Shown: piece after piece, positions 23,257-41,345 of the stretch
Layout: the number at the start of each line of letters is the position of its first letter
Numbering within the stretch: the first letter of the stretch is position 1
Assembly: GCA_965206775.1 (NCBI GenBank)
Contig: CBDBKU010000003.1
Span: 1,672,884 to 1,736,883 of the forward strand
Origin: Bryobacterales bacterium
Lineage (GTDB): Bacteria; Acidobacteriota; Terriglobia; Bryobacterales; UBA6623
Direction: 5' to 3'
DNA length: 64,000 nt
Position numbers and translations under genes: made by a program
The notes under the pieces: generated by a model
The model's database searches: none
Seen by the model: only the letters and a program-made list of their open reading frames with translations
Told to the model about the DNA's origin: nothing

Positions 23257-25905
23257 TTAGAACGCTAGTGCCAGGCTAAACTTGAACGCCCGGCCATCGT
23301 TGAGAGTGTTTGTGATCTGCCCGAAGTTCGGGGACGTCAACTCGCGGCCCGGTTCGGCGAATTGTGGGTGATTGAACAGATTCAGGCCTTCCGCTCGGAA
23401 TCGCACTCCCGTGTCCCCAGGCAGCGTCCACTTTCGGGACAGCGCGACGTTGACATTGAAGATTCCGTCCTTGCGAAACGTATTGCGCCCGAGGTTGCCG
23501 GACGAGTCAGTGGGTCGGATGAATGCGAACGCTGAGACGGGCAAGAGTCCCGCCGATGTGTCTGGGTCGTCCACGGACCGGCCGAGCAATGTCGCATCGA
23601 GCAAGTTCGGCCGGTCTCCGGGCGAGCCGTCCACGTTCCCGAAACCCTGTCCGTCCGAGCCCGCTATGACATCAAAGGGAGTGCCGGACTTCGCCAGGAC
23701 GACCGAACTCACGCTCCAGCCGCCCGCGATCGCTCTAATTGGCCCTTGATGGGAAGGCACGGTCCAGGTCGTCTTGAGCAGCAGGGCATGCGGCTGGTCG
23801 AACGAGCTGACAGCCCTCATCTCCGCGTGCGAATTGAATTCCGACTGGCTTCGTCCGAGCCGGCCCGAGCGGCCCGAAGCGGTGTTCGAGAAATCGTTGC
23901 CCAGATCGATCGCCTTGCTCCACCAGTACGACGCCTCCATGCTCAGGCTCTTCCAGTTCGGAACAGTCAGAACGACCTTCGCCGCGTCGAAGTATCCTCT
24001 GGAGCCGTTCAGCACCAAGCGGTTGTCGAAGAATCGGGAATTCGGTCGTCGCTGGTTCACGGTGCGAGTGGTCTGCGGCACGCCCGGTATTGGCTGGGCG
24101 CGGTTCGTGTACCACAGCGTTAGGAGCTTGTGCGTGCGGCTTCCTACATAGCCGAGATCGATCGTCCAGTCACCACCCAGGCCCAGCTGCCAGTCCAGCC
24201 CGTACTGATGGGAATAGGGAGTGGCGAGTTCCGGATCCAGCGAGAAGACGGTGGATCGCCCGGTCCGGTCCAGGCCGGCCGGGTCCAGCCTCCCGAGCGG
24301 GCGAACCAAATCGGGGGCCTGCACGGCGATGTTGATGTTCTGCGGAGGGCTGAACCGCGCCTGCCCGTAGGTCACGTCGAAGATCTGTCCGTGGTGGATT
24401 CCGTAGGAGCCGCGCCAGACGCCCAGCCCGTTGCCCAGTCGGTAGGCGAAGCCAAATCTAGGCGCTAGGTTGTTGCAGTCGCAGTCGTAAGGAATCGATG
24501 TGAGTCCCTGAACCTCGTTCGGGGAAGTCACTGGCTCGTAGCGGAGCCCAATGTCCAGGGTCATGGCGTTCGAGACCTTCCACTTGTCGCCTATGTAGTA
24601 CTGCATGGCCCAGTTGCGGAACCCTCGGTGGACGTTGCCGATCGCCACGCGGTAGACGCTGGGAGTGCCGAGCCGAATGTTGGTGATTGCGTCTCGACCA
24701 AAGTCGTTGCGAAAAAAGAATAGTCCGCGATGGCTTTCAGCCTCCCAACTGTTCACCTGCCTTCGGGTCAATTCCGTCCCGAATGTCCACGTGTGGTCGC
24801 CGCGCAGGTGCTCGGCACGCGCCGCGTATGTGAATCGGTTGAGCGCGCGGTCAATCGGGATGTTGGAGCTTGGGCCTAGGAACTCGACGACGAATCCAGT
24901 CAGGACCAGCGGGCCCACTGACGACTCTTCGCCGACCAAGAGGCTACCCACCCGCTCGTAACCAACCGTAACATCTGTCGTCGTCGACGAAGACCAACTT
25001 CGATTCCACCCTGCCATGGCAAGGTGGTTCTTGGTGGTGGTGTCGGGATTCTGGCCCCCCACTAGCTGGAAGGCATCGACCTTCTGCCCTGTGAAGCCGT
25101 ACTGCATGGCGATGTGGTCCCGACTGCCCGCCGCCTGTCGGAGCCGGATCGAGCCGCGGTCGTTGTCGATGCTCTGGATGTCGTTGGTGTTCAAGGCCCT
25201 TGGGTTGATGTCCGTACGATTCGGAAGCTCGTCCGGGTAGGCGTCCAAGAGCCGCTGCACGTAGGCTCGCCTGTCCGGGTCCGTCGCGAGAGGCGTGCGC
25301 TCGTCGGGCGCGGGCACAAGGACGTTGCCGTTGACGTTGCCACGCGATCTCAGCTGGTTCCCTTCGAACGTCAGCGCCGCGCCGCGCCACGCCGTCGTGC
25401 CGACCGTGAAGCCAAAGTCGTTGTCGTGCGCTGGGCGCACGCCGCCGGCTTGGAAGAACGAACGTGCGCTGCTCACGCTGTTCTGATGGGTCCAGCGGAG
25501 TTCCCCGTGCGCGTTTGCAACCGGAGTGGCAGATGCCTGCTTGAAGCGCCTCGGCGGCTGCCCGAATTCGGCGGCGAAGTACCGGTTCTCGATTCGGAAA
25601 TCTATGGGAACCGTGGCCGTGGTTCCCATGCGGGTCGTCAGCTCGCGCAGCACGTTGTTGTCGATCAACGTAATTCGCACGTTCTCGTTCCGCCGTCCCT
25701 CTCCTTCTTCCGAGTCGACCTCGCCCAGCAAATTGAGATCAGTTCGGTCGACGTCGCCCTCTGCCGAGGATTCTGACGCCGGCGGAGGACGCTCAGTCTC
25801 GGGCTCCACCGCTTGCGAAGGCTGTTGGGCCGGCATAGCCGCCGCCGCCACCAGCGCCATCGTCCAGGTTGCGATGATTCCCCTCATTCTTCGGGATTCT
25901 CGCAT
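23257..25905 (-). CDS. Outer-membrane beta-barrel protein, TonB-dependent-receptor-like (acidobacterial type)
   Basis: 882 aa with a signal peptide and an alternating beta-strand pattern. It has aromatic girdle residues and a C-terminal ...FKFSLALAF ending in Phe. I saw no clear plug or CarboxypepD_reg domain by eye. Confidence 0.7.
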   Translation of the reverse strand: MRESRRMRGIIATWTMALVAAAAMPAQQPSQAVEPETERPPPASESSAEGDVDRTDLNLLGEVDSEEGEGRRNENVRITLIDNNVLRELTTRMGTTATVPIDFRIENRYFAAEFGQPPRRFKQASATPVANAHGELRWTHQNSVSSARSFFQAGGVRPAHDNDFGFTVGTTAWRGAALTFEGNQLRSRGNVNGNVLVPAPDERTPLATDPDRRAYVQRLLDAYPDELPNRTDINPRALNTNDIQSIDNDRGSIRLRQAAGSRDHIAMQYGFTGQKVDAFQLVGGQNPDTTTKNHLAMAGWNRSWSSSTTTDVTVGYERVGSLLVGEESSVGPLVLTGFVVEFLGPSSNIPIDRALNRFTYAARAEHLRGDHTWTFGTELTRRQVNSWEAESHRGLFFFRNDFGRDAITNIRLGTPSVYRVAIGNVHRGFRNWAMQYYIGDKWKVSNAMTLDIGLRYEPVTSPNEVQGLTSIPYDCDCNNLAPRFGFAYRLGNGLGVWRGSYGIHHGQIFDVTYGQARFSPPQNINIAVQAPDLVRPLGRLDPAGLDRTGRSTVFSLDPELATPYSHQYGLDWQLGLGGDWTIDLGYVGSRTHKLLTLWYTNRAQPIPGVPQTTRTVNQRRPNSRFFDNRLVLNGSRGYFDAAKVVLTVPNWKSLSMEASYWWSKAIDLGNDFSNTASGRSGRLGRSQSEFNSHAEMRAVSSFDQPHALLLKTTWTVPSHQGPIRAIAGGWSVSSVVLAKSGTPFDVIAGSDGQGFGNVDGSPGDRPNLLDATLLGRSVDDPDTSAGLLPVSAFAFIRPTDSSGNLGRNTFRKDGIFNVNVALSRKWTLPGDTGVRFRAEGLNLFNHPQFAEPGRELTSPNFGQITNTLNDGRAFKFSLALAF

Positions 25906-26058
25906 ACCGGCCCGGAATCGTCCGCCGTACCGGGTTCAGGTCCCGAGAGTGGCGAGGCTGCGATTGCGGCTCGCGCCCTCGGGCGTGTATGATTCTGGCG
26001 CCAGTCGCCGGGCCAACAGGGGGATGCATCCTTGCGGGGCCTTGGACAAGGAGGTCTA

Positions 26059-26838
26059 ATGGACAAACTGTTGAACCGCGTGGCTCTCGTCACCGGGGCA
26101 GGACGGGGTATCGGGCGAGCGATCGCGATCGCGTTCGGAACCGAGGGCGCGAGAGTCGCGCTCGCGGCGCGAACTCGGGCCGAGCTCGACGAAGTCGAGG
26201 CCGCTGTCCGGTCGGCAGGGGCCGAGGCAATTTCGATCGAAGCCGACTTGGCCGACCGAGCCACTCCCAAGCGGCTGGCTTGCGAAGTAGCCGACCGTCT
26301 CGGGCCGGTGGAGATTCTGGTCAACAATGCGGGCGTTGGAGGAGGGACGAAGTTCAGGCCCGTGTCCGATTTCGACGACGATCATTGGCACCTGACGCTC
26401 GCGGTGAACCTCACGGCACCCTATCTTCTGACCAAGGCGGTGTTGCCGTCCATGCTGGAGCAGGGAAGGGGGCGGGTCATCACTGTCGCCTCGATCAACT
26501 CCAAGCGGGCTTCCTATCACGGCTGCGCCTATGCTGCCAGCAAGCACGGAGTGATGGGCTTCATGCGGAGCCTCGCGCTGGAGGTTGCCCCGGTAGGGAT
26601 TACTGCGAACTGCATCTGTCCGGGACCAGTAGAGACCGCCATGCTGGAGAAGAGAATTCAATACGACTCCCATCGGCTCGGCCGGTCAGCCGAGGAGCAC
26701 GTGCGACAGATGACGCCGATGGGGAAGATCCTGGTGCCGGAGGACATCGCACCGATGGCCGTCTATCTCGCATCGGATGACGCGCGCATGATCACCGGCC
26801 AGGCTTACAACGTTTGCGGCGGGATGGTCATGCACTAG
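26059..26838 (+). CDS. Short-chain dehydrogenase/reductase (SDR)
   Basis: An AGGAGG ribosome-binding site lies 5 nt before the ATG at 26059. It has TGAGRGIGRAIA, NNAG and YAASKHG, the classical SDR motifs. Confidence 0.9.
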   Translation: MDKLLNRVALVTGAGRGIGRAIAIAFGTEGARVALAARTRAELDEVEAAVRSAGAEAISIEADLADRATPKRLACEVADRLGPVEILVNNAGVGGGTKFRPVSDFDDDHWHLTLAVNLTAPYLLTKAVLPSMLEQGRGRVITVASINSKRASYHGCAYAASKHGVMGFMRSLALEVAPVGITANCICPGPVETAMLEKRIQYDSHRLGRSAEEHVRQMTPMGKILVPEDIAPMAVYLASDDARMITGQAYNVCGGMVMH

Positions 26839-26910
26839 CCGGCCACCGGAACTCGCCTGACGCAGGAAATCCTCTCGTCCCAGGACCAGTTGGTGGCAGG
26901 TCCGCGAGTA

Positions 26911-28002
26911 TCAGGCGTCGGGCTGTAGCCGCCTGATCGCGTCGTAATCGAATTCCAGCCCTAGGCCGGGCTCCTGGGATAGGACGATTTCCCCGCCGGC
27001 CATCGAGAACGTATCCGTGAACAGCGGCAGGGCCCAAGGCATGTGTTCGACGATGAGCCCGTTCGGAGCCGCCGCGACGCAATGCGCCAGAATCTCCGGT
27101 GCCAGGTGGCTGACGACCGGCTTGTTGAAGGCTTCGGCTAGGTGCGCCGCCTTCATCCAATGGGTGATGCCGCCAACTCGGAGCAGATCAACCATGACGA
27201 CGTCGACGCTGCCTCGCTCGAGCATGTGAGCGAATGGCGCGATCCCGTAGTGGTACTCGCCGGTAGCGATCGGGGTGTCCAGAGCGTCCGCGATCCGCGC
27301 TAGTCCGTCGTAGTCCTGATGATGCACCGGATCCTCGAGCCAGAACAGTCCGCTCTCCTCCATCGCACGCCCCACTCGGATTGATCGATCGACACCCCAG
27401 CCTTGGTTGATGTCGACCATCAAGTCGACTTCGTCGCCGACCGCCTTGCGCAGCGATCGCATTCGCCGGATTTCCGCAGCCGGGGATTTCTCCGCACCCA
27501 TGCGGAACTTCATCGCCCGGAAACCGCTGGCGGCCAGTTCCTCCCCCTTGGATGCCAGCATGGCGGCGTCGTAGTCTCGCCACAGGTATCCGCTGGCGTA
27601 GGCGGGAACTCGATTCGACTCGCCACCCAGGAGCCGGTACAGAGGCAGTCCTGCGGCCTTGCCCTTGATATCCCAAAGGGCGACGTCGATCGCGGCGGCG
27701 GCCGATGTCACCAGGCCCGCCGGGGCACCGAAGCCGCCGAGGTCCAGCAAGTTCGCGCTCACAGATTCGACCGCGGACGGATCCTCGCCCACCGTCCACT
27801 CCGCCAAGGCGTCGACGGTCTCGCGCAAGGGCTTCAGCATCGAGGCATTGACGAAGCCGGAATAGCCGATGCCTTCCACTCCGTCGTCGGTTCGCAGCTC
27901 GAGCGTGACGAAGTTGGCGATCTTGGTCGCGATCGATTCCTCTGTCGGATCGGCCAGCATTGCTGGACAGGCGAATTGTGTGCGATAGGACGAGATTTTC
28001 AT
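26911..28002 (-). CDS. Enolase-superfamily acid-sugar dehydratase (mandelate racemase/muconate lactonizing enzyme family)
   Basis: It has an MR/MLE N-terminal capping domain and a barrel domain, with metal-ligand-region motifs (DLMVDINQGW, WLEDP, IATGE). I chose the start MKISSYRT at 28002. Confidence 0.85.
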   Translation of the reverse strand: MKISSYRTQFACPAMLADPTEESIATKIANFVTLELRTDDGVEGIGYSGFVNASMLKPLRETVDALAEWTVGEDPSAVESVSANLLDLGGFGAPAGLVTSAAAAIDVALWDIKGKAAGLPLYRLLGGESNRVPAYASGYLWRDYDAAMLASKGEELAASGFRAMKFRMGAEKSPAAEIRRMRSLRKAVGDEVDLMVDINQGWGVDRSIRVGRAMEESGLFWLEDPVHHQDYDGLARIADALDTPIATGEYHYGIAPFAHMLERGSVDVVMVDLLRVGGITHWMKAAHLAEAFNKPVVSHLAPEILAHCVAAAPNGLIVEHMPWALPLFTDTFSMAGGEIVLSQEPGLGLEFDYDAIRRLQPDA

Positions 28003-28097
28003 GACGCCACGCTGTTCCCCCAAGCTCGCGGCGCCGTGATCGCGCCGCATCCGTTTCCGCCGATTTCGGCGAACCGGACGGGATCCTAGTTGCCCAA

Positions 28098-28556
28098 TCA
28101 GTATACGGTTTCGCCGGTCGGGTCAGGTCCCGCCGACGTGGTTCTGTTCCAGACGAGGCGCGTGCGGTACGAACGGCATCCGGAAGGGATCGGAGGCGTC
28201 TCGATGACCAGCATGCCCCCCTCGAACCGAAGATGCCGGACCTGGTCCGTGCCGACCCAGTTCGGATGCCAGCTGCCGAGAACTCGATGCGTGACCGTGC
28301 GGGCACGCTCGTCGACAATGTAGGTCCCGTAATACCCGAGGTACCCAAGAAAAGCCGCTCGTGTTTCCTCGGCCGGTGCGCGCCGCGCACTAGTGCGGAG
28401 TCGCGGGATGTCCGGTCGCATCAAGTGACCGGTGACGTAGCCGGTTGCCGTGTAGACGAGCAAGCCCTCCGGGGTTTCCCCGTAGGGAAAGTCGACCTCG
28501 CCGTCCGACCATCGGACTTCGCAGCTGACAAGACGGTAGGTGCCTTCGATTTCCAT
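28098..28556 (-). CDS. Lipocalin-like domain protein
   Basis: 152 aa. The sequence GTYRLVSCEVRWSDGEVDFPYGETPEGLLVYTATGY...YYGTY matches the lipocalin-like (PF13924-type) pattern as I remember it. Confidence 0.6.
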   Translation of the reverse strand: MEIEGTYRLVSCEVRWSDGEVDFPYGETPEGLLVYTATGYVTGHLMRPDIPRLRTSARRAPAEETRAAFLGYLGYYGTYIVDERARTVTHRVLGSWHPNWVGTDQVRHLRFEGGMLVIETPPIPSGCRSYRTRLVWNRTTSAGPDPTGETVY

Positions 28557-28635
28557 GGCGCTTTCACTAAGGCTTGCAGGTCTGGGACGATCGCTCCCAA
28601 TCCCAGCGCAGGAACGAACCCGCTGCAATCGACAG

Positions 28636-29472
28636 TTAGGGCAAGCCGGCTCCTGGGACGCCCACCCGAACGGTCTCGACGCGGGCGCTGCGCAGAGCGA
28701 CGGCCTTGGCAGGCTGCGTGGTTTCCGATGTCAGCACGAACAGAGTGCGTCGATCGGAACCGCCTAGCATGCATGCAATCGCCTTCCGTCCGACACAGAC
28801 CCGATCGGTGATCTCGCCGCCTTCGCGTACTCGCACTGCAGCCCGTTCCGTGGGAGACGCCACCCAAATGCAGCCCTGCGCGTCCAAGCAGATGCCGTCC
28901 GGAGCCATGCCGATCTCCGCCCAGACGCGACGCCGGGAAAGCGAACCGTCTCTCTCGATATCGAATGCTGTGAGCCGACGGCCGTAGCTCTCGCCTACGA
29001 CTAGCGTACGACCGTCGTCCGCTATCACCGTGCCGTTCGGGAACATCAGGTCCTCGGCCACGACCCGTGCGGTTCCGTCGGGGTCTACGGCGATGAGACT
29101 AGCCGGTCGGAAGCTGGCGTGAGCGAAGTGATCGAACCCGAAATGGCCTATATACGCGCGTCCAATTGTATCCACCACCATGTCATTGCACTCGTGGGCA
29201 GCGAGACCGCTCAAGTCGGCATGCTCGGCGAAGCCGTCAGGCTCCAGGCGCAAGAGCCGGCGGTCTGTCATGGAAACGACCAGCATCCGTCCGTTCGGAA
29301 GCCACCCGAGGCCCGAGGGCCGGTTAGGAACAGTCGCGACTACTTCGGAGACTCCGTCCGCGCCCACGGTCATGACAGCACGGCCGTGCATGTCGGAAAA
29401 CCACAGCTTTCCCTCGTGCCAGCGCGGCCCCTCGAGGAACGCGCCGCCATCGAGAAGCACTCTTGCCTTCAT
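28636..29472 (-). CDS. SMP-30/gluconolactonase/LRE family lactonase
   Basis: 278 aa with a six-bladed propeller pattern: EGPRWHEGKLWFSD, PSGLGWLPNG, NDMVVD and PDGICLDAQG. Confidence 0.85.
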   Translation of the reverse strand: MKARVLLDGGAFLEGPRWHEGKLWFSDMHGRAVMTVGADGVSEVVATVPNRPSGLGWLPNGRMLVVSMTDRRLLRLEPDGFAEHADLSGLAAHECNDMVVDTIGRAYIGHFGFDHFAHASFRPASLIAVDPDGTARVVAEDLMFPNGTVIADDGRTLVVGESYGRRLTAFDIERDGSLSRRRVWAEIGMAPDGICLDAQGCIWVASPTERAAVRVREGGEITDRVCVGRKAIACMLGGSDRRTLFVLTSETTQPAKAVALRSARVETVRVGVPGAGLP

Positions 29473-29606
29473 CAGTCCTCGTTAGAGCAGCGCGGACGGC
29501 TCGGAAGCCTCCGGGGCCTCGCCAGTTACCGTCATGTCCCTGCCAGACTTGACTCTCCGGGAGGTCGAGGCCTCGTCAAACATCTGGTCAGCGATCCGAG
29601 CCGGCA

Positions 29607-29668
29607 CGGTCACGCGATAGTCACAATACCGTAACGCGGTAGTAGCCAGAACGTAAATCACCTGTCAC
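29607..29668 (+). promoter_or_regulatory. Pho-box-like array: six direct 7-mers phased exactly 11 bp apart upstream of phoX
   Basis: The 7-mers are CGGTCAC, TAGTCAC, CCGTAAC, TAGTAGC, ACGTAAA and CTGTCAC. Their GT cores lie at 29609, 29620, 29631, 29642, 29653 and 29664. The E. coli half-site is CTGTCAT with 11-bp spacing. The array ends about 60 bp before the phoX ATG. Confidence 0.45.
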
Positions 29669-29729
29669 ATCGGATCGATAGCCTCGGTACGACGCTCCCC
29701 TCGGGGCAGTGTCCATCCAAAGGAGATTG

Positions 29730-31820
29730 ATGCCGAAACAACGACTCTTCCTGTCCGGCGATGTCGGCTTCGAGGGAGGCGAACTGCGACGCTCTTGCAG
29801 CGACACTCTCGACGAGGTGATTTCCAGGCGCATCCTGCGTCGCTCGCTCCTGAAGGGCGGCGCAATGGCCCCGCTCTTCTGCCTGGGCGCGGTCGCGAAC
29901 CTCAAGGGACACCATGCTGACGAAGGCCTTTCGTTCTCTCCTATCCAGGGCAGCCTGGACGACGAGATCGCAGTGCCCGATGGGTACAAGTGGGCGCCCT
30001 TGGCCGCATGGGGCCAGCCCTTGACATTCGACGCTCCGGACTTCGATCCGGACAACCTGGATGCCGCCGCTCAGCGACAGCAAGTGGGATACAACTGCGA
30101 CTTCGTCGCGTGGTTCGACTACATCCGCAACTCCGGCATTGTCTGTGTAAACCACGAATACACGAATCCTGACCTGATGTTTCGCAACTACTCGGCAGAG
30201 AACACAACGCAGGCCCAAGTAGACTACGAGATCGCCGCGCACGGCGTGTCGATGTTTCTCGCCTCCCGCAAGGCGGCTTCCGACGGGCCCAGCTACGGGC
30301 TCTACGGCGGCAGCGCCTTCAACCGGCGCATTCACGGAGAAACCCCGATTACGATCTCTGGACCAGTGGCGGGCAACCCGCTTCTGGTGACGGCCTCTGA
30401 CCAGACCGGCCAGACGGTAAACGGAACGTTCAACAACTGCGGCGGCGGCGTCACGCCCTGGGGCACCTATCTGACCGCCGAAGAGAAGTTCGACCAGTAC
30501 TTCGCAAACAACAAGGCCGTTTCGCACGAGATGGCCAAGACCGCGAACGATCGCTTCGGCGTGGGAGAGGAAGGCGGCAGGCGCCCTTGGTGGCGCTTCC
30601 ATCGGCGGTTTGACCTGAACTACGAGCCGAATGAGATCAACAATTTCGGCTGGGTCGTCGAAATCGACCCCTACAGGCCGAAGTGGACTCCGCGGAAGCG
30701 CACGGCGATTGGCGGGTTCAAGCACGAGGCCGCGGCTACAACTCTCTCCGCAAACAGGAATGCGGTGGTGTATTCCGGCGACGACGCTCGCTTCGAGTAC
30801 GTGTACAAGTTCGTCTCGGACGGTGTCTACAACGAAGCGGACCGCGAGAGCGCCAAGCAACTGCTCGACAGCGGGACGCTCTATGTCGCGAAGTTCAACG
30901 ATGACGGGTCCGGCGAGTGGCTGCCGCTCGTCTACGAGAACGGCTCGCTCAATGCCAGCAACGGATTCACGAGCCAGGCGGATGTTCTGCTCTTCGCGCG
31001 GCAGGCGGGAGACTTGCTGGGAGCGACCAAGATGGACCGCCCCGAGGACATTGACATCAATCCGATCACCGGCAAGGTCTACGTCGCTCTAACTAGTGCC
31101 TGCGGCGGAAGTCCGTATTTCGTTGATATCCAATGGGTTTTGGCGATTTCCGGCGGGTGAAGATTCTGCCGGGAGGTCAGGATTCGCCGGAAATCCCACC
31201 GATTCGAATGGATTCGTGCAGATCTTCGCATTTTGGAGATCAGGAGTCACCGAAGCATGAATACAAGATGCTGTATGATCGATTCGCTCCAAGGATGACA
31301 CCCCGCCCAGATTTCGGGGGTTTTGTCGCAGGCACTAACTAACAACACACGGCGCGAGCCCGGCAACGACAACGGAGCGACGACATTCACTTGGGAGATC
31401 TTCATGCTGTGCGGCGATCCCGCTGACGAGGCTCAGGGAGCCTATTTCGCGGGCTTTGACACCAGCCGCGTGCGCAAGGTCGCGAACCCGGACAACTTGG
31501 CCTTTGACCAGCACGGCAACCTCTTGATCGCCACCGACGGGCAGCCGAGGAGGGTCGGCATCAACGACGGCATCTTCTTCGTGCCAACGGAAGGTCCCGA
31601 GCGGGGCTACAACCGCCAGATCTTCAGCGGAGTCGTGGGAGCCGAGTGTGCGTCGGTGATCATGAACTCCGCGCAGGATCTGATGCTGGTATCGATCCAG
31701 CACCCTGGCGAGGGCGGAACCCGCGAGGAGCGAGTCTCGACCTTCGGCGGACCGGTAGTCAATCGGCCGACCGTCGTGGCGGTCACGCGGATGCAGGCCC
31801 CGTACCGGATCGGCGCGTAA
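29730..31820 (+). pseudogene. phoX: PhoX-type alkaline phosphatase (DUF839) interrupted by a 242-bp insertion
   Basis: An AAGGAG ribosome-binding site precedes the ATG at 29730, and the Tat-type signal is SRRILRRSLL. The N-terminal ORF ends at a TGA inside the insert (31160). The C-terminal ORF resumes at ...ALTNNTRREPG and carries DNLAFDQHGNLLIATDG. Removing the insert and one AACT copy restores KVYVALTNNTRR. Confidence 0.8.
31095..31336. mobile_element. MITE-like non-autonomous element (242 bp)
   Basis: It has perfect 10-bp terminal inverted repeats, AGTGCCTGCG (31095-31104) and CGCAGGCACT (31327-31336). It is flanked by direct AACT copies (31091-31094 and 31337-31340). It has no credible ORF and is visibly AT-richer than the flanking DNA. 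Confidence 0.75.
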
Positions 31821-31826
31821 GCGGCA

Positions 31827-32149
31827 TTACCGGGCGGCGGGTCGTCCGCCGCCCGGACAGTCTCGCGTCAATCCGGAGAGCCGACACAGGTCTGCTATCA
31901 CCGCCATGAGAATCAGATTGGCACGTTCCGAAACGCAGCCACGGAATCCTTGCTGCAAGATCTGGCGGCTGGCCGCTACGCCGTGAGCGACGCTCCGGCG
32001 GATGGCAAGCGGGGCCGTTCGCGCAAGATAGGACGGAGCGTGGGGCACCGTGCCAAGTACGGCCCGCTTGCGGGCATCGTCGGTCCGAACAAGAAGATGA
32101 GACATCAACAACAGTGCTGATCGGAACGGGAGAGACTGTAGCCACGGCT
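31827..32149 (-). pseudogene. Possible C-terminal remnant of a DDE transposase truncated by the IS at 32150
   Basis: The minus-strand frame is open right up to the IS boundary. Its tail ...QGFRGCVSERANLILMAVIADLCRL resembles the RGL...a.a.NL.RL C-terminal signature of IS5/IS1182/IS4-type transposases. The match is weak and degraded. Confidence 0.3.
31830..31856 (+). terminator. Perfect 11-bp GC hairpin after phoX (CCGGGCGGCGG-gtcgt-CCGCCGCCCGG)
   Basis: The hairpin lies 10 nt after the phoX stop codon. There is no U tract, so it is an intrinsic-terminator-like or bidirectional stem. Confidence 0.4.
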
Positions 32150-32168
32150 GCGCCCATCTTTGGAGTTT
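32150..32168. repeat. Left terminal inverted repeat of the outer IS
   Basis: GCGCCCATCTTTGGAGTTT; its reverse complement occurs at 36533-36551 with one mismatch. Confidence 0.7.
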
Positions 32169-32356
32169 CGGCCCAGTCTAGGGCTATGCCGTAGCCGATT
32201 CGCTCCGCGTTAACCGCCTGAATCGGCGATTGTATCCAAGACAATGCCGATGACAACGCCGTGCAATCTCTTTATGTTCTTGTTTGGCCTGATTTCGAGC
32301 CCCGCCCTGAATGTGCTGACCACGTGCTGTCCACTAGTGTTGACAGATTGCCTCGC

Positions 32357-34336
32357 ATGCGATATCATCGGGCTGTGTTCGTCCGGCGCGTCGAAACTCG
32401 CTCCAAAGGCTCCGCCAGCGGTGTCGCTTACCGCTTGGTCCACTCCCAGCGCCAGGGCCCCAAGGTCCGCCAGCTGATCCTCGCCCATTTCCGTAGCGGC
32501 CTCGAGCAACGCGTCCCCCAAAGCCACTGGAAGCAGCTCGCCGCCGCCATCAAGGACTCTCTCACCGGACAGGCCCGCCTGCCATCCGCGCCCGCAGCCG
32601 ACCCTGAAACTCTCGCTCTCGCCCAGCGCATCGCCACCGAGGCCGCCGTCATCGCCCCCCTCGTGCGCAGCCGCCTCCGCGACGCCGGTTACGACCTCGG
32701 CTTCCGCATCGCCGACGACACTCCGCCCCAGCCGCCGACCGAATCCCCGCTCGCCCTGCTGCCCTCCACCCTGCGCCACACCAACACGCGCGAGGCCGGT
32801 GCCGCCCGCCTGCTCGACCTGCTGGCCCGCGAGCTCGGCCTGCGCGAGTGCCTCCTCCAGTGCGGCCTGCGCCCCCGCCACGTCCGCCTGGGCCTCGCCC
32901 AGATCCTGGCCCGCGCCCTGCATCCGGGCAGCGAGCGCGAGACCCTGCGCTGGCTGCGCGAGGACTCCGCGCTCGGCGAACTGCTCGGCCTCGAGCCCGC
33001 CGATCTCTCCTCCAACTCCCTGTATGTCGCCGCCGACGCCCTTTGGAAGCACCGCGACTCCATCGAGCGGGCCTTGTTCGACCGCGAGCGCGACTTGTTC
33101 GGCCTGCAGCCGCGCATCGTCTTCTACGACCTCTCCAACACCTTCCACACCGGACGGCCCCGGCATCGCTACGCCGCCCATGGACGCTCCCAGCAGAAGC
33201 GCCACGACTGCCCGCTGGTCAGCTTGGGGCTGCTGCTGGACGGGCAGGGCTTCCCGCGCCGCTCGGAGGTGCTGGCCGGCAATGTGGGCGAGGCGGGCAC
33301 GCTGCAGGCGGCGATCGCGCGGCTGGACAGGGTCGCGGGCGAGCGCCCGACGGTGGTGTTCGATGGCGGGATCACGAGTGCGGCAAACCTAGCCTGGCTG
33401 CGGGAGCAGGGCCTGCACTGGATCACGCTCGAGCGGCGGCGCAAGCCGGCCCCGGAACGCGAGCCCGACACGGAGTGGGAGAGCGCTGGCGGTCACGAGC
33501 TGAAGATCTGGCGGCTGGCAGCGACGGAGGCCGGCGAGGCGGAGGCCTCCGCACAGGCAGCGGCGGGCGGGGAGGCGCGCCTGTGCGTGTGGAGTCCGGC
33601 CCGGGACAAGGACGAGCAGTCGCTGCTGGATCGCAAGCGGGAGCGCTTCGAGGCGGCACTGCGCTCGCTGCACGCAGGGCTGAGCGTGAAGGGCCGGCTG
33701 AAGGCCTTCGACAAGGTGACGCGCAAAGTCGGGCGGATCGAGGAGACGCACAAGCTGGTGGCGTGCCAGTACACGGTGACGGTGCAAGCCGGGGAGAAAG
33801 GCAAGGCCGCGGCGGTGCAATGGGAGCCGAACCAGCGGTACCGGGAGCGCGACCGGGTCCAAGGCACGAGCCTGCTGCGCACGAGCCGGGTGGATTGGGA
33901 CGACCAGCGGATCGTGCGGGAATACTGCCGCCTGGCCGACATCGAGGCGACCTTCCGCTCGTTCAAGGACGAGCTGGGCCTGCGCCCGATCTACCACAGT
34001 CTAGGCGAGCGGGTCGCGGGACACCTGTTCCTGACCGTGCTGGCGTACCACCTGGTGCACGCCTTGCGCTATCGCCTGCGTGCGCGAGGGATCAGCTGGA
34101 GCTGGAAGTCGATCCGGAATCGGATGCGCACCTGGATGCGGCTGACCACCACGATGCGGACGGCTCAGGGGAAGGTTTGGAGCCAGCGCCAGGACGTGGA
34201 CCCGAATCCGGAGCAGGCACGCATCGCCGCCGCTGCGGGGCTGAGCTTCCGACGCCACCCCCGCACCGTGCCCGTGGATCAAGGCAAGATCCAAACGGAC
34301 CGAGAAAGCGAGGCAAGTCCCAGCAACAAAGTGTAG
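32357..34336 (+). CDS. IS1634-family (IS4 superfamily) DDE transposase
   Basis: 659 aa from the ATG at 32357. The N-terminus MRYHRAVFVRRVETRSKGSASGVAYRLVHSQRQG follows the IS1634 pattern (FxRxVxxKxKGKxYxYxLVES.R). The C-terminus LFLTVLAYHLVHALR is typical of DDE_Tnp_1. Confidence 0.8.
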   Translation: MRYHRAVFVRRVETRSKGSASGVAYRLVHSQRQGPKVRQLILAHFRSGLEQRVPQSHWKQLAAAIKDSLTGQARLPSAPAADPETLALAQRIATEAAVIAPLVRSRLRDAGYDLGFRIADDTPPQPPTESPLALLPSTLRHTNTREAGAARLLDLLARELGLRECLLQCGLRPRHVRLGLAQILARALHPGSERETLRWLREDSALGELLGLEPADLSSNSLYVAADALWKHRDSIERALFDRERDLFGLQPRIVFYDLSNTFHTGRPRHRYAAHGRSQQKRHDCPLVSLGLLLDGQGFPRRSEVLAGNVGEAGTLQAAIARLDRVAGERPTVVFDGGITSAANLAWLREQGLHWITLERRRKPAPEREPDTEWESAGGHELKIWRLAATEAGEAEASAQAAAGGEARLCVWSPARDKDEQSLLDRKRERFEAALRSLHAGLSVKGRLKAFDKVTRKVGRIEETHKLVACQYTVTVQAGEKGKAAAVQWEPNQRYRERDRVQGTSLLRTSRVDWDDQRIVREYCRLADIEATFRSFKDELGLRPIYHSLGERVAGHLFLTVLAYHLVHALRYRLRARGISWSWKSIRNRMRTWMRLTTTMRTAQGKVWSQRQDVDPNPEQARIAAAAGLSFRRHPRTVPVDQGKIQTDRESEASPSNKV

Positions 34337-34398
34337 TGCCTTCAAATCCACTTGGCGGAATTCTTGGTCAATAGAATCAATGACTTACAAATGTGAAT

Positions 34399-34436
34399 CA
34401 CCGATTTTCATTTCCAATATAGAGACCTAATTTTGG
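34399..34436. repeat. Left terminal inverted repeat of the nested IS
   Basis: CACCGATTTTCATTTCCAATATAGAGACCTAATTTTGG aligns with the reverse complement of 36486-36521 with a few mismatches and indels. Confidence 0.75.
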
Positions 34437-34471
34437 CGATAAAGCCAAGCACGAGCGACGCCCCATGGGAT

Positions 34472-36191
34472 TCATGATCGGGAAGCTCCGTTAAAGACGA
34501 GTTGGCGGTTGCCCAGCCAGGGGATGCGCGTGGTGCCGACGGTCTGGAGGGCCTCCAGCAGGGCGGGCAGGTCCCGTTTCTTCTTCAGCGAGACGGTGCA
34601 CAGGTCCGGTGTGAGGGAGATGTCGGCGGCGGTGCAGAGGAGCTTCTCGTAGAGCGAGCGGGCGGTGAGCTGGCGGTAGCCGGGCGGAAGATCGAGGGCG
34701 AGCAGGCGCAGGAGATTGTAAGCGAGGACGGTCATGGCAAGGTCGAAATCGACCTTGATGACCATGGAGGAGGAGAGGAGGTGGAAGAAGGCGAGCTGCT
34801 CGGCAATGGATTGCTCGACGAGCCAGCGGCGGGCGTAGCGGCGCAGGATGGCGGCAAGGCTGGAGTCGAAATCGTTGGTGAGCAGCAGGGAGGGGCGCCG
34901 GTGTTCGCCGCGCAGGATGGTGATCTGGCGCAATTCGCCGCCGAAGTCGCGCAGCGCGACAGTTGCGTCGTGGGCGGTGACCAGGCGCGTGCCCGAGGCA
35001 GCGGGGACACGGATGCTGCGCAAGGAGGACTTGTCGAGAGCGCGCGCGTTGGCGAGCAGGCGCTTGCCGCGGCGGCGGACGGTGACGAACAGGATGCCTT
35101 CCTGGTCGAGGCGGGCGAGGCTGGCGTAGGTGGTGAAACGGCTGTCGAAGACGAGGTAGCGGATGGGCGGGCCGTGGCGGCGGGAGAAGTCGAGGAACTC
35201 GAGGGCGGTGCCGGCGCTGGTCTCATTGCGGACGCTGCTGGCGTCGGCCTGCAGGAGCAGGCCGGAGTCGGGGTCCTGGGCGAGGGCGGCGGAGATGCTG
35301 ACGAGGGAGCGGCCGCGAGTGCCGGACCAATGCCTTTGCAGGGTGGCGTCATCGCCCCAGTGGGGCAAGGTGGTGAAATCGAGGTTGGCGGAGTCGCCGG
35401 CGAGGCCCTTGGCGGTCCAGATGGAGGCGAGGGCACCGAGCAGGCGCTGGTTCATGGCGCGCGTGGTGCGATCGGAATACGAGGAAAGCGAGGCGGTCTT
35501 GGGCAGGACGTTGAGGCCGGCGAAGAGGCCGAGGCCGCGATCCATGCACCACAGGTCGTCGGCGCTGTAGCGGCGGGCATCGGAGAGCTTGAGGGCGACG
35601 AAGGCGAGCACCGACTGCAGGGCCGGCAGGGTGCGGGTGCCGGGGTAGCCGGCCTCGGCGATCGCGGTGTCGAGGCCGTAGCGGCGGATCCAGGGCAGCA
35701 GGCAGAGCGTGCCGGCGGCGCGCTCGGACTGGAAAGTCTCCTCCGCGCGCGGGTCGAGCAAGACGCTCGCGGGAGCGCGCAGGCGGGGCGCGGGTGCGGC
35801 GGGGCAGGCGCTGGAAGCCCTCCTCGCGCAAGACATGCCCGATCGCGCGCAGGCTGGGAGCGTCGCGCAGTTCGGCGTCGAGGCGGGCCTTGATGTCGGG
35901 CAGGGACAGGTTCGCCTTGCGCAATTCGATCACGCGCTGGCGCACGTCCGGCAGCGGCAGGACAGGAACGCGACCGGGGGCCTCGGGTGGTCGGAAGAAG
36001 AACGCGGCCTGGTCGTCCAGACGGCGGAAGTCGCGGGTCATCGCATAAACCGAGCCGATGGCATAGCCGAAGCGCCGGGCGACGGCCTCGGCGGAGAGGC
36101 CCTCGAAGCAGAAGGCGCGCAGGACTTCGTACCGCCGTTGGAGCGGGTTGGCAGGCTGGGCAAAGAATGAGGCGTCGGACTGGGAGGACAT
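34472..36191 (-). pseudogene. Transposase of the nested IS (N-terminal HTH plus DDE_Tnp_1-like core), split by a +1 frameshift
   Basis: The N-terminal frame runs from 36191 to about 35790 (MSSQSD...GFQRLPRRTR). The C-terminal frame runs from about 35764 to 34472 and is displaced by +1 nt. It carries the motif YARRWLVEQSIAEQ (Y-2-R-3-E). The junction lies in the GC-rich GCGCCCCGCC tract. Confidence 0.7.
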
Positions 36192-36485
36192 GGCGGGTGC
36201 CTGATTTAGGTTATCATATCGAATATGAAACAACTATAGCAAGTTAACTAAACACAAATCGGGTTCCGGGCCATCAGCACAGAAAGCATGCGGGATCCGG
36301 CACTTGCAGCCATTTCATGTCGCGCTGTCGGCTGCGGGGGCATGTTTTAGGCCCAACCGGGATGTCGCCTGAGCCAAGAATCGCTTGGCGTGCACCTAAC
36401 CTTCGCCGAACTCGAGAAATCCGTAAATCACTCAATTCAGGGATGTTGTGCGATCGGCGATCGATCTCAGGCCAGTCTGCGCACA

Positions 36486-36521
36486 CCAGAATTAGGGTCT
36501 AATCGGAAATGAAAATCCGTG
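36486..36521. repeat. Right terminal inverted repeat of the nested IS
   Basis: See the left repeat at 34399-34436. Confidence 0.75.
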
Positions 36522-36532
36522 TGAATTGCAAA

Positions 36533-36551
36533 AAACTCCAAAGATGGGTGC
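36533..36551. repeat. Right terminal inverted repeat of the outer IS
   Basis: AAACTCCAAAGATGGGTGC is the reverse complement of 32150-32168 (18/19). Confidence 0.7.
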
Positions 36552-36711
36552 GGTCTCATACGTGGTCACGTTGAACAAAGCCGGACATCTCGCGGAATCG
36601 GTCATTCGAGCGGTCGGAAGCTTCGATTGGTGGGCAATTTCAACCGACTCCCAGCCAGCCTTCGCCGCCGCCGGGCCTTGGCACGTTGCACACCGGCTCT
36701 AGCGCTGTTCG

Positions 36712-38196
36712 CTACAAATCCGAGCGGCCCTGCCAGATCACGACCGGCTTGCGGGCCGCCCGTGTTTCGTCCACCTTGCTTGTACGCGTGGTGACCGGAG
36801 CCTCGAGAACCAAGGCGGGATCCGTTTCTACTTCTTCAGCTATGGCCTGCATGGCCGAAACGAACTCGTCTAGCTCGTGCTTGCCCTCCGTTTCGGTCGG
36901 TTCGATCATCAAGGCGCCGCGGACGATGAGTGGGAAGCTCACGGTATATGGGTGGAAACCGTAGTCGATCAGGCGTTTCGCGATATCCCCTGTCTTCACT
37001 CCATGCTTCGCTTGCCTTGCGTCGCTGAAGATGCATTCGTGCATCGAAGGGGCTCCGAACGGCAAATCGTAGTGCCCCTCCAAGCCCTTTCGGATGTAGT
37101 TTGCATTCAGAACTGCGTCTACGGTGGCATTGCGGAGACCTTCGCCGCCATGGGCCAGGATGTACGCCAGAGCTCTCACCAGCACACCGAAATTCCCGTA
37201 GAATGCCCGGACTTTGCCGATCGACTGCGGGCAGTCCCAGTCGTAACGCAGCCCCACTGATCTTTCACGGATGCGAGGAACGGGCAGGAACGGCTCGAGG
37301 TGAGCCCTGACGGCGACCGGTCCGGCGCCGGGGCCGCCGCCCCCGTGCGGCGTGGAGAACGTCTTGTGGAGGTTCAAGTGCATGACGTCGACACCAAATT
37401 CGCCCGGGCGAGCGACTCCGACCAGCGCGTTCATATTCGCGCCATCCATGTACAGTTGAGCTCCGCGGCGGTGAAGGATTTCCGCGACTGGCGCGATGTC
37501 CTGCTCGAAGATGCCTAACGTGTTGGGATTCGTGACCATGAGCGCCGCGACGGACCCGTCAACGGCCGCCTCAAGCGCTCCGACATCGATCATGCCGCGT
37601 GCGTTAGACGCGATCTCCAAAACGTCGTACCCAGCGATGGCCGCCGTCGCTGGATTCGTGCCGTGCGCCGAGTCGGGGATCAACACGACCCGACGGGCGT
37701 CTCCGAGGGATTCCAGGTACGCCCGCACCAGCAGCAGGCCGGTCAGCTCGCCATGTGCGCCTGCGGCGGGCTGCAGCGTGACCGCGTCCATCCCGGTGAT
37801 TTCAACCAGGTACTGCTCTAGCGTCCTCTGGATGTGCAGCATGCCCTGCGCAAGGGATTCGGGCTGATACGGGTGCGCGTCGATGATCCCCTCGATGCGA
37901 GCGACCGCCTCGTTGAGGCGGGGGTTGTACTTCATCGTGCAGGACCCCAGCGGGTACAGCCCGAGATCAATCGCGTAGTTCCATGTCGAGAGTCGAGTGA
38001 AATGTCGGATGACCTCCACTTCGCTCACCTCGGGGAAGCCCTCGATGTCGGCTCGAAGATTTTCGCTACCGAGAACTTTCCTAGGGTCGATGGCCGGCAC
38101 GTCAAGACCGGGCAATTGGTAGCCAATCTTCCCCGGAGACGAGCGCTCGAAGATCAGCGGCTCCTCCAGCGTTGGGTGGGGGCGCACCCTACTCAT
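36712..38196 (-). CDS. gcvPB: Glycine dehydrogenase (decarboxylating) subunit 2
   Basis: The start at 38196 (MSRVRPHPTLEEPLIFE) overlaps the gcvPA stop by 8 nt (ATGAGTAG). The PLP-lysine region is HLNLHKTFSTPHGGGGPG. The longer ORF-track start at 38424 overlaps gcvPA out of frame. Confidence 0.9.
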   Translation of the reverse strand: MSRVRPHPTLEEPLIFERSSPGKIGYQLPGLDVPAIDPRKVLGSENLRADIEGFPEVSEVEVIRHFTRLSTWNYAIDLGLYPLGSCTMKYNPRLNEAVARIEGIIDAHPYQPESLAQGMLHIQRTLEQYLVEITGMDAVTLQPAAGAHGELTGLLLVRAYLESLGDARRVVLIPDSAHGTNPATAAIAGYDVLEIASNARGMIDVGALEAAVDGSVAALMVTNPNTLGIFEQDIAPVAEILHRRGAQLYMDGANMNALVGVARPGEFGVDVMHLNLHKTFSTPHGGGGPGAGPVAVRAHLEPFLPVPRIRERSVGLRYDWDCPQSIGKVRAFYGNFGVLVRALAYILAHGGEGLRNATVDAVLNANYIRKGLEGHYDLPFGAPSMHECIFSDARQAKHGVKTGDIAKRLIDYGFHPYTVSFPLIVRGALMIEPTETEGKHELDEFVSAMQAIAEEVETDPALVLEAPVTTRTSKVDETRAARKPVVIWQGRSDL

Positions 38197-39532
38197 CGGC
38201 TGCCTCCCGGAAGCAGTTCGTGTAGAGATCCATCGCCACTCGCGATACCGTCTCCGTAGCGCAGACCAGCAAGGCTCCCTCGAGTTCCGGATAGAACCGG
38301 CCCAAGTCGAGACCTCCGACGATCTTCGACTCGAGAGCGAGTTGGTTGACCTCGCTCCCTGACTTTCCGCGAGGACGCACGACGAACTCGTTGAAGAACG
38401 GGCCCGAGAAAGGCAATTCGGCACCGGCGGACCGGAGAGCGTCTGACAGAAAGTGTGCCTTGGCTAGGTTTTGCTCAGCGAGCTCGCGCAGCCCCTGCCT
38501 CCCAAGCAGTGTCATGTAGACCGTCGCCATCAATGCGACCAAGGCTTGATTCGTGCAGATGTTTGAAGTCGCGCGCGCCCGCCGGATGTGCTGCTCTCTG
38601 GTCGCCAGCGTCAGACAGTATGCGCGCCGGCCTTGCGAGTCCAGCGTCTCCCCGACGAGTCGGCCAGGCATCTGGCGAATATGCCTTGTCTTGGTCGCAA
38701 GTATGCCCACGTAGGGCCCGCCGTAGCTGGGCGGATGCGCGAACGATTGCAATTCACCGGCCACGATATCTGCCTCCTTCGGAGGGGCGAGCAGCCCTAG
38801 AGAAGCCGCTTCCGAGACCACCACCACGAGGAGAGCACCGTGCCGGTGGACTAGTTCAGCCACCTCGCGGACCTGCTCCACGATCCCGAAGAAGTTCGGG
38901 GACTGAACGATCACCGCTGCCACGTCCGCGGAGAGCTTGGCGTTCAGATCCAAGAGGTCCAGCTGGCCAGTGCGCGGGTCGCATGCGACTGTCTCCGCTG
39001 GCAGGTTCTGGTGCTTGTAGTAGGTATCGAGCACTTGGCGGTACTCGGGGTGAACGGTCCGCGCCACGAGCAATCGCTCTCGCCGGGTAATCCGCACCGC
39101 CATCATCCCGGCTTCCGGCACCGCTGTTGAGCCGTCGTACATCGATGCGTTTGCCACGTCCATGCCGGTGAGTTGGGCGACCATCGTCTGGAACTCGAAG
39201 ATCGTGGTCAGGATCCCTTGAGAAATCTCCGCTTGGTACGGCGTGTAAGCCGTCAGGAATTCTCCTCTCGTGGCGATGGCGTCGACGACTACCGGTCTGT
39301 AGTGGTGATAGGCGCCGGCACCCAGGAAACACGCGTATCCTCTCGAGCTCTCGCTGGCACGGGCCTCGAAATAGTCGTGGATCTCGTACTCCGACTGGCC
39401 ATTCGGAATTGCCAGAGCTTCCTTCTGCCTCAGTGCGGCCGGAATGCTGGCGAATAGGTCGTCGGGCGAGTCCATGCCCAGCTCGGCGAGCATTTCCCCG
39501 CGTTCCGCTGGGGATTTGGGAAGGTAACGCAA
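38189..39532 (-). CDS. gcvPA: Glycine dehydrogenase (decarboxylating) subunit 1
   Basis: 447 aa (MRYLPKSPAERGEMLAELG... TAYTPYQAEISQG) in canonical GcvPA order within a gcvT-H-PA-PB operon. Confidence 0.9.
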   Translation of the reverse strand: MRYLPKSPAERGEMLAELGMDSPDDLFASIPAALRQKEALAIPNGQSEYEIHDYFEARASESSRGYACFLGAGAYHHYRPVVVDAIATRGEFLTAYTPYQAEISQGILTTIFEFQTMVAQLTGMDVANASMYDGSTAVPEAGMMAVRITRRERLLVARTVHPEYRQVLDTYYKHQNLPAETVACDPRTGQLDLLDLNAKLSADVAAVIVQSPNFFGIVEQVREVAELVHRHGALLVVVVSEAASLGLLAPPKEADIVAGELQSFAHPPSYGGPYVGILATKTRHIRQMPGRLVGETLDSQGRRAYCLTLATREQHIRRARATSNICTNQALVALMATVYMTLLGRQGLRELAEQNLAKAHFLSDALRSAGAELPFSGPFFNEFVVRPRGKSGSEVNQLALESKIVGGLDLGRFYPELEGALLVCATETVSRVAMDLYTNCFREAADE

Positions 39533-39547
39533 GCCGGGATCCCTCGG

Positions 39548-39940
39548 CTATCCGGCGGTTTCGGCCGCGACATACTCCGCGTACTGCTCGGCCGTCAGCA
39601 GGGACTGAACCTCGTTGCGATCGTAGAGCGTCATCTTCACCAGCCACCCTGCGCCGTGGGCGTCCTCGTTGATTCTCTCCGGAGCGTCCATCAGTTCCGC
39701 GTTGACGTCCGTGACGTCGCCGCTGATCGGCGCATAGATGTCAGAGACCGCCTTCACCGATTCGACCGCGCCTAGCAGCCCCTCCGATTGCAGCTTGGCG
39801 CCGACGGCGGGGAGTTCGACGAAGACCACGTCGCCGAGCTGGTCCTGAGCGTGATGCGTGATGCCGACCGTCGCCACGTCTCCATCGATCTTCACCCACT
39901 CGTGCTCGCGGGTGTAGCGGTATTCCGCCGGGTATTCCAT
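39548..39940 (-). CDS. gcvH: Glycine cleavage system H protein
   Basis: 130 aa with the lipoyl-lysine motif VESVKAVSDIYAPISG. Confidence 0.95.
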   Translation of the reverse strand: MEYPAEYRYTREHEWVKIDGDVATVGITHHAQDQLGDVVFVELPAVGAKLQSEGLLGAVESVKAVSDIYAPISGDVTDVNAELMDAPERINEDAHGAGWLVKMTLYDRNEVQSLLTAEQYAEYVAAETAG

Positions 39941-39945
39941 AGGTC

Positions 39946-41061: not shown

Positions 41062-41089
41062 GACGCCGAGCCACCGCCGCTCTCGAAGG

Positions 41090-41345
41090 CGGCCGGAGGG
41101 AACGAATCGTTAAAGTTAACACCCGCTCCGTACACTGTCAACTTGCCTTCGGTTCGAGCGCGGACTCAGGTTGATGCGCCCCGCCGAAACCTCCGAAATT
41201 CGTGCCGGAAGCGGCCGTTTTCGCCTCTGCGGGGCCGGTTAGGCACCGGTTCGACGCATCGAAGCCGCGTTCCGGGTTCTGCGAGGCGGGAAGCGATTCC
41301 CACCTTCGGCATTTTCGATCTGTTGTACCGCTTGCGGAATTGGCG
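41090..41345 (-). promoter_or_regulatory. Structured gcvT 5' leader; possible divergent tandem glycine riboswitch (not confirmed)
   Basis: The 307-bp leader contains two CCGAAGG motifs on the sense strand, GCCGAAGGUGGGAA at 41310-41297 and ACCGAAGGCAAG at 41153-41142. One is followed by CUCGCAGAACCCGGAAC, which resembles CUCAGGCAAAAGGAC. A long-range helix CGGAGG/CCUCCG is also possible. I did not find the conserved GGAGAG elements. Confidence 0.3.

Follow-up and report, generated by a model that had tools for sequence, protein, structure and literature searches.

Bacterial MITEs (miniature inverted-repeat transposable elements), such as Correia/Nemis in Neisseria and RUP in Streptococcus pneumoniae, are small, carry terminal inverted repeats and are flanked by a target-site duplication. 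We describe here an element of this appearance that splits a gene for the phosphatase PhoX (phoX) in a 64-kb stretch of DNA from a Bryobacterales bacterium (contig CBDBKU010000003.1). This whole stretch is called the window below, and positions without further label refer to it. The insert is very probably a non-autonomous MITE of 240 bp that has kept the ends of an insertion sequence (IS) of the ISNCY category, with a transposase of the NCBIfam family NF033593 and the Pfam family DDE_Tnp_1. The original prediction, made from the window alone, had proposed a MITE-like element of 242 bp. Its placement within phoX is upheld, but the best reading of the size, taken from empty sites, is 240 bp of non-coding sequence (31096-31335).

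As in bacterial MITEs generally, the window element is free of a transposase, has its ends in common with autonomous ISs, is lower in G+C and folded, and is polymorphic for insertion between near-identical strains. Its partner, in contrast, is an NF033593-type IS of the ISNCY category and not one of the IS630, IS5 or IS200/605 elements that accompany bacterial MITEs in general. The duplication is 6 bp long and falls at a TA-NN-TA hexamer, whereas in the general case it is TA, and at both loci seen the element lies within coding sequence rather than in the usual intergenic location.

The termini of the window element match those of 1.83-1.87-kb ISNCY/NF033593 ISs, and the target hexamer and duplication length are the same, but its left subterminal sequence (GCGGAAGTCC...) is unlike that of every full-length copy retrieved. 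It also agrees with MITEs in a Bryobacterales metagenome-assembled genome (MAG), CBDCOC01, in termini, size class and TA-NN-TA duplication, and is homologous to them over the left ~120 nt and the right 25 nt. The two differ further inside the left inverted repeat, where GCGGAAG stands against ACAAAAG.

Members of the IS1202 family encode TnsB-like transposases and have TGT/ACA ends with inverted repeats of 24-26 bp, and duplications in the ISAjo2 group of this family are ~5 bp (PMC10132070). The family, another large group, was formerly placed in ISNCY, and this historical label is its only common point with the window element. An IS1202-like identity was rejected because the ends (GTGCC/GGCAC), the 6-bp duplication and the DDE_Tnp_1 transposase of the partner do not fit that published description.

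Empty alleles and the target-site duplication

Two environmental contigs that are 99.3-99.9% identical to the window carry an uninterrupted phoX. The first (L041; ENA ERZ23495113, 2347 bp) matches the window at 99.93% over 29666-31095 and at 99.77% over 31332-32207. Its junction sequence is GTCGCTCTAACTAACAACACACGG. Both contigs read GCTCTAACTAACAAC, with TAACTA present once. Over window 28211-31825 the second contig (L046; ERZ23495176), which comes from a different sample, is collinear except for the insert. An intact PhoX of 614 aa encoded on L041 (P0001) is 100% identical to the repaired window translation, which bears out the expectation that deleting the element restores a continuous PhoX.

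The empty allele is 246 bp shorter than the filled one. Taken by itself, the filled site fits an element of 244, 242 or 240 bp with a duplication of 2, 4 or 6 bp, respectively. The TA-NN-TA hexamer is whole and single in both empty sites, that of phoX and that of a second locus described below. Since TAACTA occurs once in the empty site and twice in the filled site, 6 bp were duplicated and the element spans the 240 bp given above. The heptamer CTAACTA is also found twice, 246 bp apart (31089-31095 and 31335-31341). A 7-bp duplication would fit the phoX site but is excluded at other copies. Thus the duplication first put forward, AACT, does not hold, whereas a length of 6 bp, which had been entertained, does, in the form TAACTA.

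The flanks of the filled and empty alleles differ by less than 1%. That near-identical contigs keep an uninterrupted phoX shows that the insertion is recent and that the environmental population is polymorphic for it; with flanks so similar, it must be younger than the split of strains differing by less than 1%. The view that this is a recent event in an active or recently active family is further supported by the second locus, which has its own empty site, and by the related MITEs and ISs. The target itself arose in this lineage by synonymous changes. The codons at 31088-31093 are CTA ACT in the window and CTG ACC in an orthologue of 83% identity (L056, about 7357-7362), so that the TAACTA target exists only through two synonymous codon choices in the window lineage.

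Sequence and structure of the element

The predicted perfect terminal inverted repeats are present. The repeat extends over 11 bp, TAGTGCCTGCG (31094-31104) and CGCAGGCACTA (31327-31337), when the TA of the duplication is included, and over 9 bp when the termini GTGCCTGCG and CGCAGGCAC are counted alone. Perfect 11-bp inverted repeats at a spacing of 100-400 bp are common in this DNA, with 17 pairs in the window against ~11 in mononucleotide shuffles. Taken alone, the inverted repeat is therefore no proof of insertion, and the case for insertion rests on the empty-site allele and on the agreement with a family of ISs.

G+C content is 53% in the insert and 63% in the window. As DNA, the element is predicted to fold more stably than shuffled sequences (z = -4.1); the termini and an internal 11-bp inverted repeat contribute most to the fold. 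It has no coding capacity for a transposase, all frames being broken or short, nor does its interior resemble the ISNCY transposase gene. A six-frame protein search, with the translations of the element concatenated, returned no protein family; the sole match was a chimeric gene call. A search of Rfam gave nothing relevant near the element (E-value threshold) or over the whole window (gathering threshold), and a scan for sigma-70-like promoters in and near the element gave no site. Among PLSDB plasmids, the element had no match in distant mode, and a 24-kb stretch searched in near mode gave trivial matches only. The features of the locus are collected in Table 1.

Table 1. Coordinates of features at the interrupted phoX locus
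Feature	Position in window	Strand	Remarks
phoX 5' part	29730..31095	+	ATG after AAGGAG; ends with codons for V A L T; P0001 starts at the same ATG
Left target-site duplication copy, TAACTA	31090..31095	.	TAACTA single in the L041 empty site
Left-end block common to second locus	31095..31148	+	96% identical in L043/L044 over 54/53 nt; homologous to left end of Bryobacterales MITEs
MITE core (probable)	31096..31335	+	~53% G+C; no transposase; 3' end matches right end of parent IS, giving the + orientation
Left terminal inverted repeat, GTGCCTGCG	31096..31104	+	Repeat search and alignment of IS/MITE ends
Internal perfect 11-bp inverted repeat	31145..31195	.	Arms 31145-31155 / 31185-31195; main internal hairpin
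In-frame TGA from element	31158..31160	+	Ends ORF 29709-31160
Right-end block, TTTCGGGGGTTTTGTCGCAGGCACT	31312..31336	+	24/25 nt as in right end of 1844-bp IS and of 240-bp Bryobacterales MAG MITEs
Right terminal inverted repeat, CGCAGGCAC	31327..31335	+	Repeat search and alignment of IS/MITE ends
Right target-site duplication copy, TAACTA	31336..31341	.	TAACTA single in the L041 empty site
phoX 3' part	31342..31820	+	Begins N N T R R E P G ... and runs to stop; same frame as 5' part

Related MITEs and insertion sequences in Bryobacterales

We scanned 185,579 genomes, each representing one species, for both 10-nt ends of the element separated by 207-237 nt. This gave 40 matches, 36 of which were singletons scattered over unrelated taxa with no further similarity, about the number expected by chance by our estimate. 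The other four lie in the Bryobacterales MAG CBDCOC01, which carries at least six MITEs of 240 bp with the same termini at four loci (L005, L015, L024 and L027). The window MITE is homologous to these over the left ~120 nt (z = 3.4-4.1), while the comparison found no detectable similarity in the central and right-central parts.

At one of the MAG loci (L027, 2581-3308) three MITEs stand head to tail, with TATATA common to neighbours, and at another (L015, 4536-6623) a MITE directly adjoins a full-length IS, with TAGTTA shared between them. As TA-NN-TA is regenerated on either side at each insertion, later insertions into the duplication seem to build up tandem arrays.

The full-length IS at L015 (4780-6623) is 1844 bp long and has the same inverted repeats as the MITEs. 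The Bryobacterales MITE has 56 nt in common with its right end, and the window element agrees with that end at 24 of 25 nt. Its two open reading frames (ORFs) match NF033593, the model for ISNCY family transposases, over positions 1-205 (176 bits) and 212-443 (237 bits); because the gene is split in two, each ORF scores under the 325-bit cut-off of the model. The second ORF carries the IS4/IS5-like domain DDE_Tnp_1 (PF01609, 29.3 bits). The split falls at about 5655-5666 of L015, where the gene passes into two overlapping frames at a G run, AAAGGGGTGA, and an intact homologue of 493 aa (P0126) is 94% identical. Either a frameshift, by mutation or programmed, or a homopolymer error in the assembly would account for the split.

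More than 3000 homologues of the L015 transposase were found at E <= 1e-30. The few whose source is named are ISNCY family transposases of Bryobacterales, and intact ones are 472-500 aa long. Related IS copies are located on contigs of 1,464,792 and 3,656,389 bp, and the same sizes are recorded for the contigs of the closest PhoX orthologues. Full-length related ISs measure 1.83-1.87 kb, have TAGTGCTTGTGACA.AAC ends and are flanked by TAGTTA or TATATA as duplications. They include an element of 1874 bp with ends TAGTGCTTGTGACAGAAC / GTTTTGTCACAAGCACTA and TAGTTA or TATATA flanks (L054, L055) and one of 1834 bp with TAGTTA flanks (L053). The sequence TA-NN-TA-GTGC is invariant in 17 of 17 aligned ends.

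By elimination, we take this type of IS to be probably the ISDol1 group of ISfinder, which we assume to comprise ISs of ~1.6-1.9 kb with duplications of 6-7 bp. The lengths of 1844, 1874 and 1834 bp and the duplications TAGTTA and TATATA fit that assumed description.

None of these ISs can be named as the direct parent of the window element. The closest relatives of the transposase (P0127 and P0128; L057 and L058) were considered for this role and rejected for want of matching ends, and the ISs in the genomes of relatives were rejected because their ends are related but different.

A second insertion locus

The six-frame search with the element found, as its chimeric match, a PDZ-domain protein (P0121) that opens with ~30 residues translated from the left end of the MITE. 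Two contigs of related assemblies that encode members of this protein cluster (L043 and L044) begin with 54 and 53 nt of the left end, at 96% identity, followed by TAGCTA. A Logan contig of 98.9% identity (L042) has the PDZ gene uninterrupted with TAGCTA once, and thus represents the empty site. L043 and L044 are independent contigs from short reads, and both break off 53-54 nt into the element, which would reflect the behaviour of de Bruijn assembly at a repeat.

This second insertion (L043, 1-60; L042, 8755-9801) lies inside the coding region, ~63 codons into the PDZ-domain gene. Gene callers yield a chimeric protein there that starts within the MITE (MRARSASSSPAGNRQNPLDINEIRISAAGTS...).

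Origin of the insert and alternative explanations

On the reading that the insert is a MITE mobilised by an ISNCY-category IS, a transposase from a full-length copy elsewhere in the genome would have acted in trans and recognised the GTGCCTGCG(A/G)C(A/G)(A/G)AA termini. The element would have integrated at the phoX TA-NN-TA hexamer via 6-bp-staggered cuts, and repair would then have duplicated TAACTA, a duplication that is shown by the comparison of the empty and filled alleles.

Several observations weigh against this reading. The filled allele at 31090-31341 is known from assembled sequence alone, and there is no second copy of the element within the window. The second locus shows only 54 nt of it (~90 nt via P0121), which a full-length IS could fit too. 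The cognate autonomous IS, expected to have the left end GTGCCTGCGGCGGAAG and the right end GGGGGTTTTGTCGCAGGCAC, was not found among the full-length ISs retrieved, and the left end of the element matches known ISs over ~10-11 nt only, plus a degenerate R-C-R-R-A-A. In addition, a scan of JGI metagenomes for the left end AGTGCCTGCGGCGGAANTCCG gave only four chance matches, which have no TA flank, partner repeat or further similarity.

The alternative that survives best, although we regard it as unlikely, is that the insert is a remnant formed in place, in which a full-length ISNCY-type IS entered phoX and lost its interior there, the 240-bp unit itself never having transposed. Only one complete copy of the exact 240-bp sequence was seen, and the terminal 54-90 nt at the second locus could be supplied by a full-length IS, both of which would suit such a history. 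However, the same IS family yields multicopy MITEs of the same size in the Bryobacterales MAG, and the interior of the insert, as noted, does not resemble the transposase gene. Furthermore, the window element is homologous to the MAG MITEs over its left ~120 nt. Of this stretch, only the first ~20 nt or so resemble the corresponding end of the Bryobacterales IS; among full-length ISs, the comparison of left ends with the MITEs covered this one alone. Descent from a MITE lineage is thereby indicated rather than a fresh deletion.

A MITE of the IS630/Tc1-mariner type, Correia- or Stowaway-like, with a TA-only duplication and TAGTG... termini, is a highly improbable alternative. TA precedes every end, and we took the terminus TA-GTGCC..ACAAAA to resemble those of Tc1 and Correia elements, a resemblance that served as a lead. 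A TA-only duplication, however, predicts an addition of 242 bp and the empty site CTAACTAACTAAC, whereas the observed empty site is CTAACTAAC and is 246 bp shorter than the filled one. Full-length elements with these ends, moreover, encode a transposase of the NF033593/DDE_Tnp_1 kind and not of the IS630 type.

The absence of the insert from short-read assemblies of the same population would be expected if a repeat fragment had been misjoined into phoX during assembly. We give such an artefact very little credence, since a chimera would give neither a precise 6-bp duplication of a hexamer that is single in the empty allele nor perfect family-specific termini placed at TA-NN-TA as in real copies. 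Finally, a native part of the gene, be it intron, intein or an insert specific to the lineage, could be suspected from the length of insert plus duplication, a multiple of three, but is refuted by the in-frame stop inside the insert, the lack of any Rfam intron match, and the absence of the insert from a 99.9% identical allele and from every aligned homologue.

Effect of the insertion on phoX

The upstream phoX ORF begins at 29709, enters the insert and terminates at the TGA listed in Table 1; the downstream part of the gene (31323-31820) is in frame with it. ORF analysis thus agrees with the predicted arrangement, in which element plus duplication amount to 246 bp, both halves of phoX share a frame, and the element supplies the stop. 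Removal of 246 bp gives a continuous translation of 621 aa containing ...GKVYVALTNNTRREPG... The repaired protein is 72-83% identical to orthologues of 636-641 aa, all of which have PF05787 (PhoX), and one orthologue (P0002) matches the structures of P. fluorescens PhoX (4amf, 3zwu) with E = 5e-113. None of 11 aligned PhoX homologues (48-100% identity) has an extra segment at the insertion point, as the original prediction of an acquired insert would have it.

As it stands, the protein would be truncated after residue 455 and extended by about 21 element-encoded residues (22 with the Ser codon that spans the junction between duplication and element). The insertion parts the N-terminal 455 residues, with the putative export signal, from the C-terminal ~160, with the conserved QHPGEGG. 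The stretch SRRILRRSLL in the 5' part is a putative twin-arginine-like signal, judged from its sequence. We infer that the interrupted phoX is inactivated.

The gene also has an in-frame deletion of 23 aa (69 bp), which is present both in the window allele and in the intact empty allele and predates the MITE insertion in the window lineage. The deleted stretch, ..AGSENGPNPRAPNPMGHIVEIVED.. (NPRxPNxxGHIxE), is kept in 10 of 10 other aligned homologues and corresponds in the alignment to residues ~406-435 of PhoX from P. fluorescens (4amf chain). The deletion begins five codons 3' of the MITE insertion point, at about 31364 and directly after ...CGCGAGCCCGG, and has CGG microhomology at its edges. 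Loss of so conserved a stretch may mean that phoX was already impaired or altered before the MITE arrived. If it was impaired beforehand, the MITE insertion would be selectively neutral.

Neighbouring insertion sequences and genomic context

There is no ISNCY-type transposase in the window. It does contain a gene for an IS1634-family transposase (32261-34336) and, on the minus strand, a second DDE transposase (34472-35836) that gives weak matches, below cut-off, to the IS1380, IS4 and IS701 models. Both ISs were considered as parents of the MITE and rejected, as their ends show no match to the MITE termini, in line with the earlier failure to link the element to either of them.

These transposase genes lie in a stretch of ~4.9 kb between phoX and gcvPB (31825-36723), where a syntenic relative (L056) has ~200 bp. 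Outer ends may be marked by an inverted repeat of 19 nt (32150-32168 / 36533-36551), and the empty-site contig L041 stops at window 32207. Downstream on the minus strand are the glycine-cleavage genes gcvPB, gcvPA and gcvT (36712-41061). L056 shows the same gene order, with gcvH in addition, placed between gcvPA and gcvT. Synteny with L056 extends over window 24204-41144 at 77-83% DNA identity.

On the other side of phoX, in sample ERZ23495113, the first 51 nt of L041 bear no relation to the window, and the adjacent contig (L047) ends at window 29663. In other samples, contigs L046 and L048 are collinear with the window across 29664-29666. This pattern suggests another polymorphic insertion upstream of phoX in the ERZ23495113 population.

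Significance

With its 6-bp duplication at TA-NN-TA, the lineage described here ties MITEs to ISNCY elements of the NF033593 type in Acidobacteriota-like bacteria. It adds a new member to an ordinary kind, and the phoX insertion leaves the present understanding of MITEs unchanged. Among the titles and abstracts covered by a literature search, none tied MITEs to the ISNCY/NF033593 IS group. It is possible, though somewhat less likely than not, that this is the first recognisable MITE lineage of the scarcely characterised ISNCY (NF033593, ISDol1-like) transposases, apparently active at present in uncultured Acidobacteriota (Bryobacterales-like), with strict TA-NN-TA targeting that would seed head-to-tail MITE/IS arrays.

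For annotation, the two phoX fragments represent one gene broken by a mobile element and not two proteins. For the IS group, which is abundant and which ISfinder lists as "not characterised yet", the analysis provides the ends, a target of 6 bp (TA-NN-TA) and derived MITEs. Filled and empty alleles occur among near-identical contigs of related environmental assemblies, the filled allele being that of the window itself. Their coexistence points to ongoing transposition and to a phosphate-scavenging enzyme knocked out in part of a natural population.

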